From contig CAYRKM010000002.1 of assembly GCA_964425075.1 (NCBI GenBank), forward strand, positions 64,058 through 128,057: 64,000 nucleotides of DNA, written 5' to 3'. The notes below the pieces were generated by a model. That model was not told the origin of the DNA. It worked only from the letters and a program-made list of their open reading frames with translations, and made no database searches. Below, piece after piece: positions 7,809 through 43,702 of this stretch. How positions within the stretch are numbered: the first letter of the stretch is position 1; each line of letters opens with the position of its first letter. The DNA comes from an uncultured Gammaproteobacteria bacterium. Lineage in GTDB: Bacteria; Patescibacteriota; Microgenomatia; Levybacterales; GWA1-39-11. A program made the translations under genes and the position numbers.

Positions 7809-10800
7809 TTGAGTATTATGGAGACTTTACATTCCGGTTTTGATCATCCTCCCGTTGGTCCTGCTCCACATCCTGATTCTTCAGGTAGACCCGTCACCCA
7901 CCCACTTCCTGGCGAGCTAGATGGGGAAGGAATGCTTGATCCAACATCTTTGGATTTCTGGCGAAATCTTCATGCTAACCTTACAGGCTTTATAAGCAAG
8001 AACTATCCCTTTTCAGATTTCCTTAAGAATTTCGATAGTGAGAAAGGGAAAGTGGGTCGCACACATTCAAATGGCGATACAAACGCCACATACGCATACC
8101 TTAATGCAATTTATAAACAGCGTTCATTCTCGCATCCCGGCCATCCTACTCTTGAGCAGCATATCGTCTCGCAATTCACACCTCCTACAGATGACCCCGA
8201 CTTTGCTGAAATTGTTGAAGAAACCCGCTCTCTTATTAGACAGCGTTTTCCAGAACATCAGCTTCCTAGAACGACAAGTCTTGTCAAGCTCCAAGATCCG
8301 GAATTTTGGAGCGAATTTGAGGATGAGCTTTCAAAAACTCCTTCGAGTTCAATATTTGCGGATTTTTTAAAAGGAGGAGGTGGCCTTTCTGAAGACGGTA
8401 GTCAGATGCAGGGAAAGTATCATGATGTCTGGCTTGATATATACGATCCTCGGGGTAGAACTGAATTTAGAAATGCATATAAGGAACAAACAGGAAGAGA
8501 TATAGATACTGATTCTGCAAGAGACGCTCAGAGGATTTTCTTCGAAGTAGCACCAGCACGTATAAAAGCACAGCTTATTAAGAGATATCCGAGAATTTTT
8601 AGTGGATTTGCAGTAGAGTGGGTAGGAAATTCTCAATTACCAAAAGCTGCCCAGGCTGTCATTAACACTCTCGGGTGGTTAGGTGAAGATAACCGAAAAA
8701 AAATACTTGACGTACTTTCGAAATATGTGCATATAGAAACAAGTAGTACTTCGGGTTTTGATTTTTCTGCTGAAGATACTAGCATTATTCTTGGACAAGC
8801 AGCAGAACAATCAGAAGTTGTAGCAGCAGAAGTTGGTCCGCCAACACTCGAAACTATTATTCGAGACGCAACTAATACTTTTCAGCTTGTTGAACAAGAA
8901 AAGTTGGATAATGGGAATTCTGAAAATGAACAACTGTCAAGTGAGCTAACAGCTGCCCTTGAAACATCCTATCTTTACCCAACACTTCGTAATGTTTTAT
9001 ATAAACCTTTCGCACTTTTTTGGTCAAAATATCTGGAGACTCATGGTGGGTCCTCTGTTCCCGAAGATGAAATGAGAAGTTTTCTTGACACATATGCACA
9101 TAATGAAATTGCTCAAACATCTCTATCGCCCGAAGAGCAGCAAATGCTTGAGCGTCTTAAAAAAAATGTTTTTTCCACTATTTTTAGTGAATTTATAGAA
9201 ATTGCAAATTACTCTTCTCAAATTAATCACTTCAGGGAAAGAAGCATCGACGGGAAAGCAAAGCATCTGTTTTTTCATCAGGTTGAGGGAATTAAGCATC
9301 TTGTCGAAAAAGGCGCCGGAATTTTAGCTGATGAACCAGGAACCGGCAAAACAGTGACCCTTGCGCTCGCAGCATTAAATCGAGTTGACCAAAAATTTCG
9401 AGAACCTGGAAAAATAGCAAGGGTGCTAGTTGTTGGATCAAAAACTGTTAATAACAACTGGGAGGAAGAACTTGAAATGCATGTTGCGCCAGGTGATGTC
9501 GATACAGTAAATTTCAATTCTGACGAACTTGCACAGTTAAGCCAGGCAAAACGCCTTGAAATAATGGCACAAAGATTGAAAAATCCTACAGCGGATAGAC
9601 AAGTTTTGCTTGTCAATTACGATCTGTTTCGCAATTCATTTTTTCAGGAACTCCTTCATTCTGCAGGAATTGACTGTACAATAATTGATGAAGCTCATAA
9701 TGTAAAATCGCGTTTTATGGATTCTATTGCTGAGCATAACGACGACACGTCCCATAATGCTCGACTTGCAAAACGCACAACAAATCTTTATAGATTTCTT
9801 CTTTCCAACCCGAATATGGATGTTTATTTGGGTACTAGCACTCCCTTCGTCAAAGAATTAATAGAGCCGCTTATCATGGGTCACCTGGTCGATAGGTGGA
9901 GTCTTCCAATTGACCGGGTTTCAGCTTTAAGGGAGGATCCTGCTGGAGCAAATTTGGCACTTCGTGAAGTAATGATTCGGCGACGAAAGGATGCAATCAG
10001 CGATATCCCCCCAAAAGACACAGACTTTATACCAGTAGACTTAAGCCTACTTAGTGCTGCGGAACGCTCGGAGCTTGTTTCATTGGGCCTTGATATAGAA
10101 AGAGCCGATGAAAGCTCTTTCAGAAGATTTTTTTCCATGTTGTCTATTGAAGCTCAAGCAAAAATGCCCTGGCTTATTGAGAAAATAAACGAGTTAACAT
10201 CTGATGGAAGAAAGGTAGTTGTTTTTACTCCATTCGTTAATGACCAGGAAAGACTTACAGCCTCAATAAGTACGAAGGCTATTGCAAAGCGACTTATTGA
10301 TTCAGGAATTACCTCTGTTGGAGTTCTTGATGGAACTTTAAGTGAAAGCGAAAAACTTGCTGTTCAAAGAGATTTTCATGACCCGAATGGGGTAAGAGTT
10401 TTGGTAGGTAATTATCAAACGGCAGGCGAATCAATTACACTTAATTCGCCTTTCAATAGAGCAACTGAAGTAATTATACTCGTTGCACCAAACACAATAA
10501 GTAGATACATTCAAGCAATTGATAGAGTGCATAGAATCGGACAAGATGAGAAGGTTACTATTCACGTGCCTTTTCTTACGGAAGACCCTATCGCAAGGCC
10601 AGACGGAACATATGACAGACGAATTGTTAGTCGAATGCTTAGAGAACTTTCACTCTTTAATGCTGTTGTAGATGGTTTATTTTTTGTTGAAGCTGCAGAT
10701 TATTACGATGAAATTAGACGGGGAAAAAACGGAAACTCAGAACCAAGAACCGCTCTTGAAAGTGGACAAACAGTTCGTTTGGATACAGAACAGAAGCCTC

Positions 10801-13871: not shown

Positions 13872-13981
13872 GTATTACGTATTTTCTTGCCTCACTCATC
13901 CGTCCGAAGGTCGGATGAGCGGGATAAGAACACTTCGCCCTGCTCAGAACCTTGTCCCGTCAAAAAATCCTAGATTTTTTG

Positions 13982-15787: not shown

Positions 15788-15893
15788 TTTTTATCACCTC
15801 CTTTCGTATAGCCTAATTTAATAGTAGAACTGTTTTGGAATATTAGTCAAGGGGGTAAAATATCAGTACAAGAAGCCTTAAGGTGTACATTCC

Positions 15894-16114
15894 GTCGGGG
15901 ATAAAGCAAGTTTGTCCCCTTCTTCATTTCATTCAGTCGGGGATAAGGAAACCTTGTCCCCACCAAATTCTTCGAGTTTGTCGGGGATAGAGGACTCGTT
16001 CTGTGAAACAGCCTGCAAGACAATCCGACCTGCCGAAGGCAATAATGTCGGGGATAGAGGACTCGTTCTGTGAAACAGTCTGCAAGACAATCCGACCTGC
16101 CGAAGGCAATAATG
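15894..16114 (-). repeat. tandem truncated tRNA-Pro-derived repeats downstream of tRNA-Pro
   Basis: GTCGGGGATA recurs starting at 15894, 15936, 15980, 16047 and 16114. The last copy is the true tRNA 3' end. The two 67-nt units (15980-16046, 16047-16113) differ at 1 nt and carry 19 nt of the tRNA T-arm/acceptor 3' side. Confidence 0.85.
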
Positions 16115-16187
16115 TCGGGGATAGAGGACTCGAACCTCCGACCTCACGGTCCCAAACCGCGCGCTCTACCAACTGAGCTAATCCCCG
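16115..16187 (-). tRNA. tRNA-Pro (TGG)
   Basis: Hand-folded. Acceptor CGGGGAT/ATCCCCG, anticodon loop TTTGGGA, T-loop TTCGAGT. Confidence 0.9.
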
Positions 16188-19530: not shown

Positions 19531-19628
19531 GAACTCGCAAAGTGAACGAAACTAAAGTGCCTGCGCTGAATGAAGCTGAAGTGCTTGCACTGAGTGAAGC
19601 TGAAGTGCTTGCACTGAGTGAAGCGAAG
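19531..19628 (-). repeat. tRNA-trailer tandem repeats (24-nt unit with AGTGCWWGCACT box)
   Basis: Units GAAGTGCTTGCACTGAGTGAAGCT at 19578-19601 and 19602-19624. A variant unit sits at 19554-19577 and a degenerate unit at 19531-19553. The array abuts the 3' end of tRNA-Ala. Confidence 0.85.
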
Positions 19629-19735: not shown

Positions 19736-19800
19736 GAAGTGCCTGTGCTGAGGAACGTAAAGACGAAGTGCCTGCACTGAGAAACGTAAAGACGAAGTGC
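19736..19800 (-). repeat. 29-nt tandem repeat (2.2 copies) of the same box family, upstream of tRNA-Ala
   Basis: GAAGTGCCTGTGCTGAGGAACGTAAAGAC (19736-19764) and GAAGTGCCTGCACTGAGAAACGTAAAGAC (19765-19793), then GAAGTGC. Confidence 0.8.
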
Positions 19801-21679: not shown

Positions 21680-21754
21680 TTTGCCTGCACTGAACAAAGC
21701 TGAATGTGCTTGCACTGAACAAAGCTGAATGTGCTTGCACTGAGTGAAACGAAG
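21680..21754 (-). repeat. tRNA-trailer tandem repeats (three 25-nt units)
   Basis: Units at 21680-21704, 21705-21729 and 21730-21754 (TGTGCTTGCACTGAACAAAGCTGAA and variants). The array abuts the 3' end of tRNA-Leu(TAA). Confidence 0.85.
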
Positions 21755-34975: not shown

Positions 34976-35029
34976 GAGTCCTCTCAGGCCCACTTCGTCC
35001 GCCTACCGGCGGACTCAGTGCGGGCACTT
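34976..35029 (+). repeat. displaced duplicate of the tRNA-Leu(GAG) 3' end carrying the CTTC...AGTGCGGGCACT trailer
   Basis: The 17 nt GAGTCCTCTCAGGCCCA at 34976-34992 equals 34922-34938, and the trailer-family sequence follows it. A 5'-end fragment TTTGGGCTTGTCCTGA at 35056-35071 matches 34852-34867 at 15 of 16 positions. Confidence 0.8.
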
Positions 35030-35089
35030 TTATAAATATAGAATAGGTTTTCCTTTTTGGGCTTGTCCTGAGAAGGCAAAGCCGACGAA

Positions 35090-35264: not shown

Positions 35265-35519
35265 ATGCAATATTTTGTGTACATTCTTGAATGCAGTGAT
35301 GGTTCGCTTTATACAGGCTATACAACTGATATAGAGCGAAGGGTGAAAGAGCACAACAAAGGAAAGAGCGGAGCTAAGTCTGTACGAGGGAAATTACCTG
35401 CCGAATTAGTTTACTCCGAAACCTTTGTAACTCTTTCAGAGGCATTGAAACGAGAAGCTGAAATCAAAAGTTGGAAGAGATACGAAAAACAAATGTTAAT
35501 AGCGACGAAGCGGGCGTAA
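35265..35519 (+). CDS. GIY-YIG nuclease-superfamily protein (stand-alone URI domain)
   Basis: 84 aa. YVYILECSDGSLYTGYTTDIERRVKEHN is the canonical GIY-YIG block. It starts 6 nt after tRNA-Phe. Confidence 0.85.
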   Translation: MQYFVYILECSDGSLYTGYTTDIERRVKEHNKGKSGAKSVRGKLPAELVYSETFVTLSEALKREAEIKSWKRYEKQMLIATKRA

Positions 35520-35567
35520 GAACCTTTCAATTTCATTGAAAGAACCTTGACCCCGCTCACTACGTTC

Positions 35568-37350: not shown

Positions 37351-37491
37351 GATGTGCCTGCACTGTGCAAGAAGTGTTACGTTGTGAAACAAAGTCTCGA
37401 AGTGCTTTCATCGATCAAGAAGTGCTTGCGCTGAACGAAATGGAAGCCTGCACTGAATGAAGTTGAGGTGCTTGCACTGAACGTAGTGAAG
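37351..37491 (-). repeat. tRNA-trailer repeat array downstream of tRNA-Leu(CAG)
   Basis: On the minus strand it reads CTTCACTACGTTCAGTGCAAGCACCTCAACTTCATTCAGTGCAGGC..., with 4-5 boxes of the AGTGCWWGCACT family that degenerate with distance. Confidence 0.8.
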
Positions 37492-37574
37492 TGCCCGAAA
37501 AAGGAGTCGAACCTTCACACCCATAAGGGCACAGCGTTCTGAACACTGCGTGTCTACCATTCCACCATTCGGGC
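37492..37574 (-). tRNA. tRNA-Leu (CAG)
   Basis: Hand-folded class II tRNA. Anticodon arm CAGTG-TTCAGAA-CGCTG, long variable arm, T-loop TTCGACT. Confidence 0.9.
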
Positions 37575-37718
37575 AACAAACATATTGTAACAGAGACAAT
37601 TTATATCATAATTACTCAATTTCAAAGAAAAAAATTTGCCTGTAAATATTACCTTTAGACTATCTTATCAATCCAAACAGCACTTGACCAGAATTTTTTT
37701 TTATGGTTCTATAGAAAG

Positions 37719-38351
37719 ATGCAAGACAGGGTAAACACTAATTCCTCTAATTTTGAAAGCAAAAGCAATTCATCTCTTAAAAAGGTTTTGTTAGTAAGCA
37801 TTTATTTATCAGCCATTCCAATATTTATCGTTTTTGTAATGCTGTTTTCTCTTTACGCAAAGTACGACGTCAATGGATATATTTCTCGTCAGAATATTTC
37901 CCTTAATTACCGAGCTTTACCTGAAAATAGTAATAATAGTACTGTTTCTCTTGAAGCAGACGACGCTAGAATTCAAGCTCTCGAGGAGTTATTTGATACT
38001 TATGACTCACCTCTAGTTGGTCATGCAGCAAAAATAGTAGAAGAGGCTGATAAGCACAATATAGACTATAGACTTTTACCCTCAATCGCTATGCAAGAAA
38101 GCACTTTGTGTAAAAAAATTATAAAAGACTCTCATAATTGCTGGGGTTTTGGAATTTATGGAGGAAAAGTAACAAAATTTGATAACTATAATGAGGCAAT
38201 AGAAACTGTAACAAGAACATTATCCAAAAAATATGTTCAAGCTGGACTTGAAGAACCACATGAAATTGTAGAGAAATATACGCCATCTGATGACGGAAAA
38301 TGGGCAAATGTAGTCAATATGATGATGGAAACTATCAAAAACTCACTTTAA
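37719..38351 (+). CDS. membrane-anchored lysozyme-superfamily peptidoglycan hydrolase-like protein (paralog 1)
   Basis: 210 aa, N-terminal TM. IVEEADKHNIDYRLLPSIAMQEST...HNCWGFG resembles the SLT/glucosaminidase catalytic-Glu region. It is a paralog of the next CDS. Confidence 0.55.
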   Translation: MQDRVNTNSSNFESKSNSSLKKVLLVSIYLSAIPIFIVFVMLFSLYAKYDVNGYISRQNISLNYRALPENSNNSTVSLEADDARIQALEELFDTYDSPLVGHAAKIVEEADKHNIDYRLLPSIAMQESTLCKKIIKDSHNCWGFGIYGGKVTKFDNYNEAIETVTRTLSKKYVQAGLEEPHEIVEKYTPSDDGKWANVVNMMMETIKNSL

Positions 38352-38427
38352 TAGCCTCAAAAGCACATTTGCATCCCGTAGTATACCCCTTGACAAACCC
38401 ATAGTGTAATGATATACTTCGTACTAG

Positions 38428-38465
38428 ATCCTAAGGTAGCCCAAAACTACTTTAGGATTTTTTTT
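38428..38465 (+). terminator. intrinsic terminator between the two hydrolase-like paralogs
   Basis: 12-bp stem (38428-38439 with 38447-38458, one G-U pair), 7-nt loop, then a run of 8 T. Confidence 0.7.
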
Positions 38466-38538
38466 GCCTAAAAAACTTAGGTAATTCTTCTCATTAATTT
38501 CCCCAAATCGGCCGAGAGTAAGACTCGACCCATATCTA

Positions 38539-39129
38539 ATGCAACTTATAAAGGTTACATTAAATATGAAAAGATATATTTTACCTATTATACTTTTGGC
38601 TTTTGCCAACGCAGCTATGCCATGGGCCCTTATGCCTAGGGTGTATCAAGCCTACGCGAAAGATACTGCATATACAAATGCGGAACTTTCTGTGGCTTTA
38701 AAAAATACTTCAGGAAATGACATGCGTGTTGATGCTTTGAGAATTATTTTTGAAAAGCGCAACTCTCCTTTAGTGCCTTATGCTAAGGCATATGTAGAAC
38801 TTGCTGATAAGCACGGTGTTGACTGGAAACTTTTACCTGCTATTTCAGGTCTTGAATCCTCATTTGGTATTCATTTAATGCCTGGCTCCCACAATGGTTA
38901 TGGGTGGGGTGGTGGACATATCTACTTCTCGTCTTGGGAAGAGGGTATTGATACTATTAACAAGGCTCTTGCTGAAAAGTATTATGGCCGTGGGGCAAAT
39001 ACTGTATGGAAAATTGGTCCTATTTATGCTGAGTCGCCTACTTGGGCTGTGAGAGTAAATAGCTTTATGGAGCAAATTGAGGCCGAGCATAACAAATTGC
39101 AAAACTCTAAGCTTGCCTTGACTATTTAA
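38539..39129 (+). CDS. secreted lysozyme-superfamily peptidoglycan hydrolase-like protein (paralog 2)
   Basis: YVELADKHGVDWKLLPAISGLESSFG...HNGYGWGG parallels paralog 1. The start is probably the ATG at 38566 (MKRYILPIILLAFANA signal peptide). Confidence 0.55.
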   Translation: MQLIKVTLNMKRYILPIILLAFANAAMPWALMPRVYQAYAKDTAYTNAELSVALKNTSGNDMRVDALRIIFEKRNSPLVPYAKAYVELADKHGVDWKLLPAISGLESSFGIHLMPGSHNGYGWGGGHIYFSSWEEGIDTINKALAEKYYGRGANTVWKIGPIYAESPTWAVRVNSFMEQIEAEHNKLQNSKLALTI

Positions 39130-39170
39130 GGATAGCCTCAAACCCTCTTTTAGAGTATAATTGCCATATT

Positions 39171-39253
39171 GCCCGAGTGGTGAAATGGTATACACGCTAG
39201 TTTTAGGAACTAGTACCCTTACAGGTGTGGAGGTTCGAGTCCTCTCTCGGGCA
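39171..39253 (+). tRNA. tRNA-Leu (TAG)
   Basis: Hand-folded class II tRNA. Anticodon arm CTAGT-TTTAGGA-ACTAG, long variable arm, T-loop TTCGAGT. Confidence 0.9.
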
Positions 39254-39352
39254 CTTCACTACGTTCAGTGCAAGCACCTCAACTTCATTCAGTGCAGGCT
39301 TCCATTTCGTTCAGTGCAAGTACTTCGGGGCCTTGTTTCTCAGCGCTTGCAC
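39254..39352 (+). repeat. tRNA-trailer repeat array downstream of tRNA-Leu(TAG)
   Basis: The first 72 nt (39254-39325) match the reverse complement of 37420-37491 at all but 2 positions. Four boxes of the AGTGCWWGCACT family are present. Confidence 0.85.
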
Positions 39353-39387: not shown

Positions 39388-40341
39388 TTGTGTTACGCTA
39401 AATACATGGTATTTCTTCAGGCTTTAGTGCTGCTTGGCTCTTTTGTAACCATTTGGTATGGGGCAGGACTTATTGTTGCTTCTGCGAATAAATTTGCGCA
39501 CAAAATACGAATTTCATCATTTGCTTTTTCTTTCCTTGTATTAGGAATTCTTACGTCAACACCTGAGTTTGGTGTCGGCGTAACTGCTGTTGCTGAAAAT
39601 AGCCCCGAAATATTTATCGGAAACCTAATCGGAGGAATACCCGTGCTTTTTCTCTTTGTAATACCAATCCTTGCTATCTTTGGGAGGGGAATAAACCTCA
39701 AAAATAAAATTAATCCCAAAAATCTTTTCTTCTCATTTATTGTTATGCTTCTGCCTGCTTTTTTTATAATCGATAAAGAGGTTACAAATTTTGAGGCTAT
39801 TATTATGATAGGTGCATACTTAGCCCTAGCTTATTCTATTCAGAAAAGTCACGGTTTTCTGGATGCAAATAATAGAAATATTCTTCACATAAAGTCATAC
39901 TCAACACAGGATATTTTAAAGATTCTCTATGGGGTTGGACTTGTTTTTGTTGCAAGTCACTATATTGTTGACGGGACTCGATTTTTTGCGGATCAATTAC
40001 AGGTATCGACATTTTATATCAGCCTTATTTTGCTCTCGATTGGTACTAATTTGCCAGAATTATCGCTTGCAATAAGAAGTATCATCTCGGGCAACAAAGA
40101 TGTAGCATTTGGAGACTATGTAGGCTCTGGAGCTGCTAATACCGTGCTCTTTGGGATATTTACACTTTTAACGCATGGTAACGTCTTGACGGTTAATCAT
40201 TTTCTTCCAGCCTTTATCCTGATGGGTGTAGGGCTTGGACTATTTTATGTATTCGCACGCTCAAAAGACATTATTTCTCAAAAGGAGGGGCTAGCTCTTT
40301 TTGCAGTATATATACTTTTTCTTATTCTTGAATTAAGTTAA
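39388..40341 (+). CDS. CaCA-family cation/Ca2+ exchanger (YrbG-like)
   Basis: About 10 TM helices. Two alpha-repeat motifs (GILTSTPEF and SIGTNLPEL) are followed by GNLIGG and GSGAANT. Confidence 0.8.
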   Translation: MCYAKYMVFLQALVLLGSFVTIWYGAGLIVASANKFAHKIRISSFAFSFLVLGILTSTPEFGVGVTAVAENSPEIFIGNLIGGIPVLFLFVIPILAIFGRGINLKNKINPKNLFFSFIVMLLPAFFIIDKEVTNFEAIIMIGAYLALAYSIQKSHGFLDANNRNILHIKSYSTQDILKILYGVGLVFVASHYIVDGTRFFADQLQVSTFYISLILLSIGTNLPELSLAIRSIISGNKDVAFGDYVGSGAANTVLFGIFTLLTHGNVLTVNHFLPAFILMGVGLGLFYVFARSKDIISQKEGLALFAVYILFLILELS

Positions 40342-43525: not shown

Positions 43526-43534
43526 CACAAAATG

Positions 43535-43623
43535 CGCTGAAGCGTTGCATTGACATTGCAGAGGCCAGAGAAGGAATTTCATTAATGAAATTCGACTGTC
43601 GTCAGCGAATCCTCTTGGGTCCA
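43535..43623 (+). pseudogene. decayed tRNA-Val-like remnant
   Basis: 20 nt at 43541-43560 are identical to the anticodon arm at 43475-43494. The remnant ends in ...GGGTCCA directly followed by the CTTCACTTCGTTCAGTGCA trailer. No intact T-arm or acceptor is present. Confidence 0.45.
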
Positions 43624-43690
43624 CTTCACTTCGTTCAGTGCAGGCACTTCAGTTTCGTTCAGCACGGGTACTTCGTTACACTCAGCACAG
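43624..43690 (+). repeat. tRNA-trailer repeat array
   Basis: CTTCACTTCGTTCAGTGCAGGCACTTCAGTTTCGTTCAGCACGGGTACTTCGTTACACTCAGCACAGACAC, i.e. three progressively degenerate units. Confidence 0.8.
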
Positions 43691-43702
43691 ACACATTTTC
43701 CC

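Follow-up and report, generated by a model that had tools for sequence, protein, structure and literature searches.

Inverted trailers of two tRNA-Leu genes in a Levybacterales genome belong to a hairpin-unit family linked to tRNA 3′ ends and UPF0213-type GIY-YIG genes

In a 64-kb stretch of an uncultured Levybacterales bacterium (assembly GCA_964425075.1, contig CAYRKM010000002.1, positions 64,058 to 128,057; hereafter "the window", numbered from its first nucleotide), the outward-facing genes for tRNA-Leu(CAG) and tRNA-Leu(TAG) enclose two paralogous hydrolase-like genes and are followed by nearly identical trailers, which form an inverted repeat. These trailers consist of a short repeated unit that belongs to a wider family, recurs at tRNA and transfer-messenger RNA (tmRNA) 3′ ends in unrelated bacteria, where such an end adjoins about 40% of the copies sampled, is linked to small genes of the GIY-YIG nuclease type (UPF0213/YhbQ), and in some loci lies, together with such a gene, between direct repeats of the tRNA 3′ part. 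We consider it probable (roughly 0.6) that the repeat represents the ends of a nuclease cassette inserted at tRNA 3′ ends, and that the two Leu trailers are gene-less solo arrays of the left end of this cassette, homogenised by a recent copy or conversion event. From sequence comparison we further infer the mobility of the cassette, an action of the nuclease on the hairpins and the direction of the conversion.

Trailers of the two tRNA-Leu genes

In the window (37.8% G+C), 14 tRNA genes were called with ARAGORN and Rfam, and a repeat search returned two inverted arms of 158 nt, 86% complementary, at 37419–37576 and 39169–39326. The trailers proper are equal at 70 of 72 positions (71 of 73 if the count starts behind the discriminator base): there is no mismatch in the first 61 nt, differences occur only at +62 and +68, and the similarity ends sharply after about +73, whereas the two tRNA-Leu genes themselves share 63 of 83 positions (76%). 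The base-by-base comparison upheld the coordinates and counts of the first-pass annotation of this DNA, which had described 72-nt trailers equal at 70 positions beside two substantially different tRNAs. Other trailer pairs of the same family in the window are equal at 40–63 of 72 positions, so that the Leu trailers stand out as a recent copy within the family, and the combination of near-identical trailers with diverged tRNAs points to a recent copy or gene-conversion event. The same annotation had also proposed a recent conversion or duplication, and this agrees with what is seen in relatives (nine loci were fetched, with taxon labels taken from the records of the metagenome-assembled genomes, MAGs): the three-unit array occurs at tRNA-Leu in none of them, including the orthologous genes of loci L005, L182, L184, and L186. 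In L186, a single related unit (ACTTCACTACGTTCAGTGTAAAC) follows tRNA-Leu(CAG) only, and single units stand behind other tRNA genes in L005 and L182, the one in L182 with an inserted hairpin as at the Leu-GAG copy of the window.

Each Leu trailer is a tandem array of three 22–24-nt units with the core YTCAGTGCARG, a structure absent from the earlier annotation, as is the recurrence of the unit at other tRNA genes (Table 1). The first unit is predicted to fold into a GCACU..AGUGC hairpin, and no terminator was predicted downstream of the arrays.

One trivial explanation would be a mis-assembly in which one trailer was copied onto the flank of the other tRNA-Leu gene. The genome is probably a MAG, its relatives and an identical GIY-YIG protein also come from metagenome assemblies, and the contig of a 99% relative (L001) breaks near both tRNA-Leu genes, one end stopping about 50 nt before tRNA-Leu(CAG) and the other 24 nt inside tRNA-Leu(TAG). 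We regard such an artefact as scarcely credible, as the two copies differ at two positions, their outer flanks are unrelated and sensible, the 72-nt repeat is shorter than a typical read, and similar arrays stand at four other tRNA genes of the window.

Units elsewhere in the window

Altogether, 18 units in seven clusters were found in the window, each oriented like its adjoining tRNA (18/18). They follow the form CAC/TTCNNNNNNN-YTCAGTGCARG, with a length of about 24 nt and repeat periods of 22–29 nt, and all arrays begin directly after CAC; of the eight tRNA genes with a terminal CAC, six have units, vs. none of the six others (Fisher p ~0.009, with duplicated and displaced 3′ ends counted). 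Only the array at 19736–19800 is not located 3′ of a tRNA. A profile built from metagenome units alone (see below) gave nine window matches with E ≤ 0.014 (down to 4e−4) and scores of 11.5–16.4, the top nine all lying in arrays; the best score in 20 shuffles was 6.8. If these loci are read as scars of former cassettes, as their sequences suggest, they would comprise solo arrays (Ala, Leu-TAA, Leu-CAG, Leu-TAG, and Val-GAC) and duplicated 18-nt tRNA 3′ ends (Pro and Leu-GAG), and the antisense motif with a displaced 3′ fragment at Gly-TCC would be another kind of scar.

Table 1. Coordinates of the tRNA-Leu locus, the unit family, and associated features in the 64-kb window
Feature	Position	Strand	Evidence and remarks
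Antisense motif TTCTGAGCAGGGCGAAG abutting displaced tRNA-Gly(TCC) 3′ fragment CTTATCCCGCTC	13918..13962	minus	
67-nt tandem repeat containing three copies of the tRNA-Pro 3′ end (18 nt, from the T-loop onwards)	15980..16131	minus	
Array of at least three units directly 3′ of tRNA-Ala(GGC)	19543..19628	minus	Profile E = 0.0004–0.0006; RNA fold z = −4.9
Two 29-nt units upstream of tRNA-Ala, in the divergent spacer with an MgsA-like gene	19736..19800	minus	Repeat and profile search
Three 25-nt units directly 3′ of tRNA-Leu(TAA)	21682..21754	minus	Repeat and profile search
Exact 18-nt duplicate of the tRNA-Leu(GAG) 3′ end (34976–34993), then one unit with inserted hairpin, then UUUUAU	34976..35030	plus	RNA fold z = −4.8
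UPF0213/YhbQ-type GIY-YIG nuclease gene	35265..35519	plus	Begins 5 nt after tRNA-Phe
Extra degenerate unit CACTTCTTGCACAGTGCAGGCAC, outside the inverted repeat, tRNA-Leu(CAG) side only	37351..37376	minus	Profile match 37365–37351, E = 0.014
Trailer array of tRNA-Leu(CAG), left arm, three ~24-nt units	37419..37491 (cores 37481, 37457, 37435)	minus	Metagenome-unit profile match 37493–37465, E = 0.0011
tRNA-Leu(CAG)	37492..37574 (start 37491/2)	minus	ARAGORN; Rfam tRNA 52.2 bits
Paralog 1, 210 aa, predicted membrane-anchored, GH73/glucosaminidase-like, Glu127 in QES	37719..38351	plus	
Paralog 2, 196 aa, predicted GH73/glucosaminidase-like, Glu106 in LES	38539..39129	plus	
tRNA-Leu(TAG)	39171..39253 (end 39253/4)	plus	ARAGORN; Rfam tRNA 57.5 bits
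Trailer array of tRNA-Leu(TAG), right arm, three units	39254..39326 (cores 39264, 39288, 39310)	plus	Profile match 39252–39280, E = 0.0033
Three units after displaced tRNA-Val 3′ end GGGTCCAC closing a pseudo-tRNA-Val, downstream of tRNA-Val(GAC)	43617..43694	plus	

Several of these loci show additional traces of tRNA sequence. At 15870–16131 (minus strand), the 67-nt unit behind tRNA-Pro is repeated 2.3 times with 98% identity, each copy containing the 18-nt tRNA-Pro 3′ end, and it is followed at about 15885–15960 by two mini-hairpins (GGGGACAAGG..CCTTATCCCCGAC) that resemble an extended acceptor stem with the same C-A mismatch. The pseudo-tRNA-Val behind tRNA-Val(GAC) (43527–43624, plus) contains a copied anticodon arm and a T-arm split by about 40 nt with a TTCGAC..TCAG motif. 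An antisense copy of the motif is bordered by a duplicated GGGC on one side and by the 5′ end of the tRNA-Val(TAC) gene on the other (35040–35089, plus), and behind the GIY-YIG gene (35520–35567, plus) an acceptor-like mini-helix (GCGGGCG..CCCCGCTC) and ACTACGTTC, the start of the Leu trailer unit, directly precede tRNA-Gly(GCC).

Other identities of the repeat were considered as well. A coding repeat was dropped, as the unit periods are not multiples of three. Sigma-54 or −35 promoter arrays, boxA/boxB, the hammerhead core, attC, dif, and Tn7-type transposase-binding sites were considered and dropped because of an apparent misfit to the consensus or the absence of partner genes, and the idea that the loop mimics a tRNA D-arm or T-loop (TTCGA..AGCTCAG) was dropped because no consistent structure could be derived.

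The hairpin unit in other bacteria and in viral contigs

Outside the window, the unit has the general form (G)CMC-TTCGRC-(short linker or inserted hairpin)-GCTCA-GKG(C), i.e., a short stem closing a conserved loop, TTCGRC..GCTCA. Between TTCGAC and GCTCAG, the linker of the loop is either 2–3 nt long, an 11–12-nt direct-repeat insert, or a 20–26-nt hairpin of many different sequences. A scan of genome collections with TCAGTGCARGCACTTC returned mostly chance single matches, plus true arrays or copies of CACTTCGRCAAGCTCAGTGCARG in Anaerolineales, Dokdonia, Chitinophagales, Neomarinimicrobiota, Bacteroidales, and several lineages of the candidate phyla radiation (CPR); in Levyibacteriota the unit directly follows tRNA-Glu. 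The 19-nt pattern CTTCGRCAAGCTCAGKGCA was found in 56 stretches of viral contigs vs. about 2 expected (an estimate from an assumed collection size), in GC-rich contexts of the type CCCTTCG..CTCAGGGC and in AT-rich ones of the type CACTTCG..CTCAGTGC. The base before CTTCG pairs with the variable base (K) after CTCAG in 50 of 53 distinct contexts (hand tally).

The position of the unit was assessed in a metagenome sample of 120 loci with 135 matches, chosen by the motif alone. Thirty-three of these matches abut the 3′ end of a tRNA or tmRNA called by ARAGORN (offset −2 to +2 nt) and at least 12 more have an obvious T-arm immediately upstream; the tRNA-linked copies cover 12 tRNA identities plus tmRNA and range from 32 to 66% G+C. 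A unit also follows the tmRNA genes of L112 (Parcubacteria) and L116 (Falkowbacteria). Five loci from Anaerolineales and other metagenome contigs (L008, L091, L198, L206, and L302) contain pure head-to-tail arrays of at least five canonical 23–27-nt units, far from any detected tRNA and in GC-rich genomes; some of these arrays are located at contig ends and may break assemblies.

We found no earlier account of the unit. In Rfam, only tRNAs reached the gathering score and nothing credible was obtained at E ≤ 10 for the window arrays or canonical copies, including an 81-nt search. A BLAST search of cultured phages with a GC-rich two-unit query gave only a coincidental coding match in tail-fibre genes of Pseudomonas LIT1-like phages, and no description was found in the open-access full-text literature under the motif, its translations, CPR tRNA-trailer repeats, miniature inverted-repeat transposable elements (MITEs) at tRNAs, or GIY-YIG together with tRNA or tmRNA.

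The GIY-YIG gene and the anatomy of the cassette

The small gene located downstream of units in the metagenome loci begins with MW(F/Y)VY(I/L)LLC, and its counterpart in the window is the gene at 35265–35519, the only GIY-YIG gene of the window according to tblastn. Its product matches PF01541 (E = 4.9e−18 over 84 aa) as well as PDB entries 1zg2 (BH0048, 1.5e−20) and 1ywl (EF2693, 2.1e−15), and GIY-YIG is its sole domain, which places it with the stand-alone Slx1-like proteins of the UPF0213/YhbQ type; no NCBIfam model was found for it. With this protein as the jackhmmer seed, 39 GIY-YIG open reading frames (ORFs) were recovered in all fetched loci, 30 of them with a sense unit less than 300 nt (usually 21–150 nt) upstream, and a GIY-YIG ORF is present in 28 of the 120 motif-selected loci. 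In L182 the order is tRNA-Phe, two units, GIY-YIG, and in the window tRNA-Phe, GIY-YIG.

Behind the GIY-YIG genes, the stop codon often falls within an antisense motif (TGAGC..CGAAGG); directly adjoining this motif is a displaced copy of the tRNA from within the T-loop to the 3′ end. Exact direct repeats of the tRNA 3′ part, at least 14 nt long, flank the cassette in L071, L192, L229, and L243, with an insert of about 0.4 kb. Paired motifs are convergent (sense, then antisense) in 15 cases vs. divergent in 4, and are spaced by 44–89 nt (gene-less) or about 360 nt (with the gene); the inverted ends of L243, equal at 17 of 20 positions after reverse complementation (hand comparison), qualify as terminal inverted repeats.

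Four loci (L208, L252, L274, and L286) have a GIY-YIG gene that fills the entire spacer between two tRNA genes, the ORF running into the next tRNA gene and stopping at the TAG of its conserved TAGCTCAG D-arm. In L182, a second GIY-YIG gene (8716–8958, minus) lies immediately upstream of tRNA-Leu(CAG), within the interval corresponding to the one studied here.

Taken together, these arrangements suggest that the repeat forms the inverted ends of a cassette of about 0.4 kb, which carries a UPF0213/YhbQ-type GIY-YIG gene and is lodged in tRNA and tmRNA genes at the T-loop or 3′ end. A complete cassette would consist, in this order, of the complete tRNA, one or more sense units, the nuclease gene, an antisense unit, and the displaced tRNA 3′ part. 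Gene-less forms (a sense and an antisense unit 44–89 nt apart) and solo sense arrays would be its derivatives, and arrays would grow by tandem duplication.

Displaced tRNA fragments of this kind could also be ascribed to tyrosine integrases, in which case the units would be arm-type binding sites or att remnants of islands or prophages decayed at tRNA genes. The 3′ parts of tRNA and tmRNA genes are classic integration sites, 3′ fragments displaced from the T-loop onwards are the usual scar, integration scars are a general explanation of such fragments (PMC9897764), and displaced fragments are indeed seen at the Pro, Gly-TCC, Leu-GAG, and Val-GAC genes of the window. We nevertheless consider this origin very unlikely: no integrase was detected among the Pfam-screened window ORFs, GIY-YIG is the only ORF seen between the direct repeats of complete cassettes (the cassette loci were not scanned for integrases), the elements between the direct repeats measure only about 0.1–0.4 kb, and the unit sequence is conserved across phyla, unlike the arm sites of diverse integrases.

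Proposed origin of the Leu trailers

The proposed starting point of the window locus is an ancestral pair of outward-facing tRNA-Leu genes flanking two GH73-like paralogs. A three-unit array at one of these tRNA genes would recently have been copied to the other, along with the shared TCGGGCA tRNA end (about the last 8 nt), either by gene conversion or by cassette-type spread. The CAG side was probably the donor, because L186 keeps one unit at its tRNA-Leu(CAG). The inverted-repeat geometry would be a by-product, following from the ancestral orientation of the two tRNAs. The cassette itself might move by homing that follows cleavage, through a structure-selective Slx1-like nuclease directed to hairpins, or in some other way.

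A broader proposal, which we put forward tentatively and at somewhat less than even odds, is that the hairpin unit and the UPF0213 GIY-YIG gene constitute a previously undescribed class of very small mobile cassettes that target the T-loop or 3′ end and use a minimal Slx1-like nuclease as the mobility enzyme. Such cassettes, about 0.4 kb in size and with gene-less 0.1-kb and solo-array derivatives, would duplicate about 18 nt of the T-loop/3′ part of the tRNA or tmRNA; the nuclease would act on the hairpin ends, and the universal conservation of the target could account for a spread across distant bacterial phyla and phages.

A number of observations weigh against the cassette origin of the Leu trailers. 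Neither a GIY-YIG gene nor a degenerate remnant of one was found beside either Leu trailer or the other window arrays, so that their link to the cassette depends on the similarity of short, diverged units. The association between motif and GIY-YIG gene was measured on loci selected by the motif, clean direct repeats are present in only 4 of 24 usable cassettes (with diverged fragments in several more), and no pair of empty and filled sites occurs among the loci retrieved. Covariation in the stem is essentially limited to C-G and A-T, a two-state pattern that might go back to two lineages instead of independent changes, and the Leu arrays fold no better than shuffled sequence (RNA fold z = −0.5 and −1.0). 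UPF0213 genes chosen by protein similarity, one each from the Firmicute Koleobacter, an actinobacterium (Solirubrobacterales MAG), and a Paceibacterota MAG, have neither tRNAs nor the motif beside them, which implies that only a subset of the UPF0213 family is cassette-borne. Finally, a nuclease domain of about 90 aa without a DNA-binding domain would be an odd mobility enzyme.

Part of the data would also fit a role at the RNA level. The units would then be functional trailer elements of tRNAs, each a hairpin that begins exactly where RNase Z cuts and serves in processing, termination, or stabilisation; UPF0213 might recognise them on RNA, and selection plus concerted evolution would keep the two Leu trailers alike. 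In a variant, the unit would be a 5′ stabiliser of the co-transcribed nuclease mRNA, with UPF0213 perhaps acting as an RNase. Units start within 0–2 nt of the 3′ end of a tRNA or tmRNA and have, in the window, only the sense orientation, hairpins are predicted for the first unit and, strongly and followed by UUUUAU, for the Leu-GAG unit, and the GIY-YIG gene usually follows on the same strand with no evident separate promoter. A housekeeping-type UPF0213 gene of Koleobacter methoxysyntrophicus (L312, CP059066.1) lies between genes for an RNA/tRNA-type methyltransferase and a TP_methylase (RsmI-like) protein, a context that hints at an RNA-related role of the family, and a fusion to TrmH led Dunin-Horkawicz et al. 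to propose an RNA role for prokaryotic Slx1-like proteins (PMC1564403). Yet 8 of the 14 window tRNAs have no units immediately after the gene, and units are missing at orthologous tRNAs of relatives, which makes them dispensable. One array is located upstream of a tRNA promoter, and copies are found in both orientations, between phage ORFs, and in long arrays far from tRNAs (Chloroflexota and Bacteroidota). Moreover, the direct repeats of tRNA 3′ parts point to insertion at the DNA level, the antisense ends are left unexplained, and the Leu arrays have neither excess folding stability nor a predicted terminator after them. On balance, an RNA function as the explanation of the Leu trailers appears unlikely to us.

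Gene order in relatives and the question of inversion

In L005, L182, L184, and L186, the locus is arranged as tRNA-Leu(CAG) (leftward), paralog 1, paralog 2, tRNA-Leu(TAG) (rightward), trigger factor, DUF5660, and L002 is consistent with this order over the right-hand part that it covers. L183 shows the same gene order, with tRNA-Leu(CAG) (8924–9006) on the opposite strand. As this arrangement is shared by at least four relatives without the 72-nt repeat, the outward-facing tRNA-Leu pair around the two GH73-like paralogs is ancestral.

This bears on a suggestion of the first-pass annotation, namely that the long inverted repeats could permit inversion of the whole segment, flipping both tRNA-Leu genes and both hydrolase paralogs. 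The inverted copies are 97% identical and 1.76 kb apart, repeats of such length suffice for RecA-dependent exchange, and the orientation of tRNA genes does vary in relatives (tRNA-Leu(CAG) in L183 and the Leu-GAG/Val/Phe/Gly cluster). The synteny comparison that the annotation had called for nevertheless showed the paralog pair in one and the same orientation towards trigger factor and DUF5660 in every relative examined, so that the suggestion found no support in the assembled sequences compared. No recombinase was found among the neighbouring window ORFs (Pfam), and the promoter-like sites of the enclosed genes all lie inside the 37492–39253 segment, so that a flip would have no regulatory logic and nothing would be switched. 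Besides, other tRNAs carry members of the same family, which accounts for the repeat. A search of JGI metagenomes with an exact 25-mer from the Leu trailer gave no match, and hence provided no other assembly or closer relative for a comparison of orientations. We consider an invertible segment highly improbable.

A Na+/Ca2+ exchanger gene (39388–40341, plus) lies between tRNA-Leu(TAG) and trigger factor only in the window genome; in L005, L183, L184, and L186 no called gene separates the two, and in L002 and L182 other genes occupy this gap. The Leu-GAG/Val/Phe/Gly cluster varies in order and strand among L005, L182, L183, and L184, and at L005:12950–13140 a complete tRNA-Val(GAC) with short inverted flanks is apparently nested in the anticodon loop of a second, split tRNA-Val-like gene. 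In this lineage, tRNA genes are rearrangement hot spots.

The hydrolase-like paralogs

The two genes between the divergently facing tRNA-Leu genes are tandem paralogs, as the first-pass annotation had stated (38% identity over 128 aa, E = 1e−25), each with an N-terminal hydrophobic segment and with the block reported there (LLPSIAMQES and LLPAISGLES). Their description as SLT/glucosaminidase-like found support in its second half only. PF01832 (Glucosaminidase) scores 20 and 24 bits for the two proteins, below the Pfam cut-off of 30.2, and a PDB search with the single sequence of paralog 2 gave nothing significant, so that a family profile was needed. This profile, built from 30 sequences, matches a phage cell wall hydrolase (8yxk, 1.9e−10) and pneumococcal LytB (4q2w/7pj3, ~1e−6), and many homologs of paralog 2 have precomputed PF01832 matches. 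In either paralog, no Pfam match to SLT was obtained at E ≤ 0.01, and the PDB profile matches were glucosaminidases only. The catalytic-Glu check proposed by the annotation showed Glu106 of paralog 2 to be invariant in 30 homologs, and Glu106 and Glu127 align to the Glu of LytB ALESNWG, the catalytic residue of that enzyme (in GH73, a general acid in a motif of the A-L-E-S/T-x-W-G type). By these sequence criteria, both appear to be GH73-like enzymes and not SLT.

Hundreds of homologs of paralog 2 were found in Patescibacteria (Levybacteria and others), although its exact sequence is not on record in the assembly index. In L001 (ENA ERZ27247828), a 1,574-bp contig spans exactly both paralogs, with flanks unassembled in that sample. 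The spacer between the paralogs (38390–38460, plus) contains a near-consensus promoter (TTGACA-17-TATACT, preceded by TG) with a 14-bp terminator-like hairpin and T-run within 8 nt, which could belong to a tiny transcript or an attenuator ahead of paralog 2.

Comparison with known systems

By analogy, we rate the repeat family and its nuclease cassette as a combination of known kinds, i.e., repeats similar to those of REP/RAYT systems, free-standing GIY-YIG genes, and tRNA-targeted insertions. Repetitive extragenic palindromes (REPs) and REPINs with their RAYT enzymes, and also the hairpin ends of IS200/IS605, share with the present units the occurrence as short extragenic hairpin repeats (single, as inverted doublets, or in clusters) and the possibility that one small nuclease-type gene flanked by repeats acts on them in trans. 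The gene found beside the units here, however, is a GIY-YIG (UPF0213) and not an HUH/Y1 enzyme, the conserved part is the loop, which is shared across phyla whereas REPs are lineage-specific, and the units strongly prefer the immediate 3′ flank of tRNA and tmRNA genes and form head-to-tail arrays.

The segB gene of phage T4 is a free-standing GIY-YIG homing endonuclease gene in a tRNA gene cluster (PMC2330249). It resembles the present case as a small GIY-YIG gene among or next to tRNA genes that is expected to spread with its flanking sequence, but SegB-type enzymes have a DNA-binding domain and belong to the I-TevI lineage, whereas the gene described here is of the minimal Slx1/UPF0213 lineage, and SegB cassettes have neither inverted terminal hairpin repeats nor an approximately 18-nt duplication of the tRNA 3′ part. 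Integrative elements at tRNA and tmRNA genes likewise bracket their insert with attL and attR, direct copies of the tRNA 3′ part from the T-loop onwards, keep the tRNA intact, and also target tmRNA; the insert here, in contrast, is only about 0.1–0.4 kb long and bounded by inverted hairpin motifs, and no integrase ORF was seen within the direct repeats. In Escherichia coli, tyrT is directly followed by tandem repeats, a 178-bp unit being present in 3.14 copies, each starting with the tRNA 3′ end. These resemble our arrays in their position and in the 3′-end copies, as the 67-nt repeat at tRNA-Pro in the window also does, but they are locus-specific, without a dispersed family or a link to a nuclease gene. 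A conserved archaeal palindrome at a fixed place behind many tRNA genes, proposed as a 3′ maturation signal, is similar in location; it differs in being species-specific, in sequence, and in having no arrays and no associated gene.

Implications

The idea of an invertible hydrolase/tRNA cassette can probably be set aside, and the spread of a repeat would explain why identical trailers stand beside diverged tRNAs. A sequence found across unrelated phyla and viral contigs, copies of which may often be mis-translated as "hypothetical proteins", can now be named and placed in context: this repeat is linked with the 3′ ends of tRNA and tmRNA genes and with UPF0213/YhbQ, an uncharacterised nuclease family. 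For UPF0213 proteins, it offers a substrate hypothesis, namely hairpin DNA or RNA with a TTCGRC..GCTCA loop. If the cassette is mobile, it would represent a new way of using tRNA genes as safe harbours, and some of the tRNA-flank rearrangements, pseudo-tRNA fragments, and assembly breaks of CPR genomes would stem from it.

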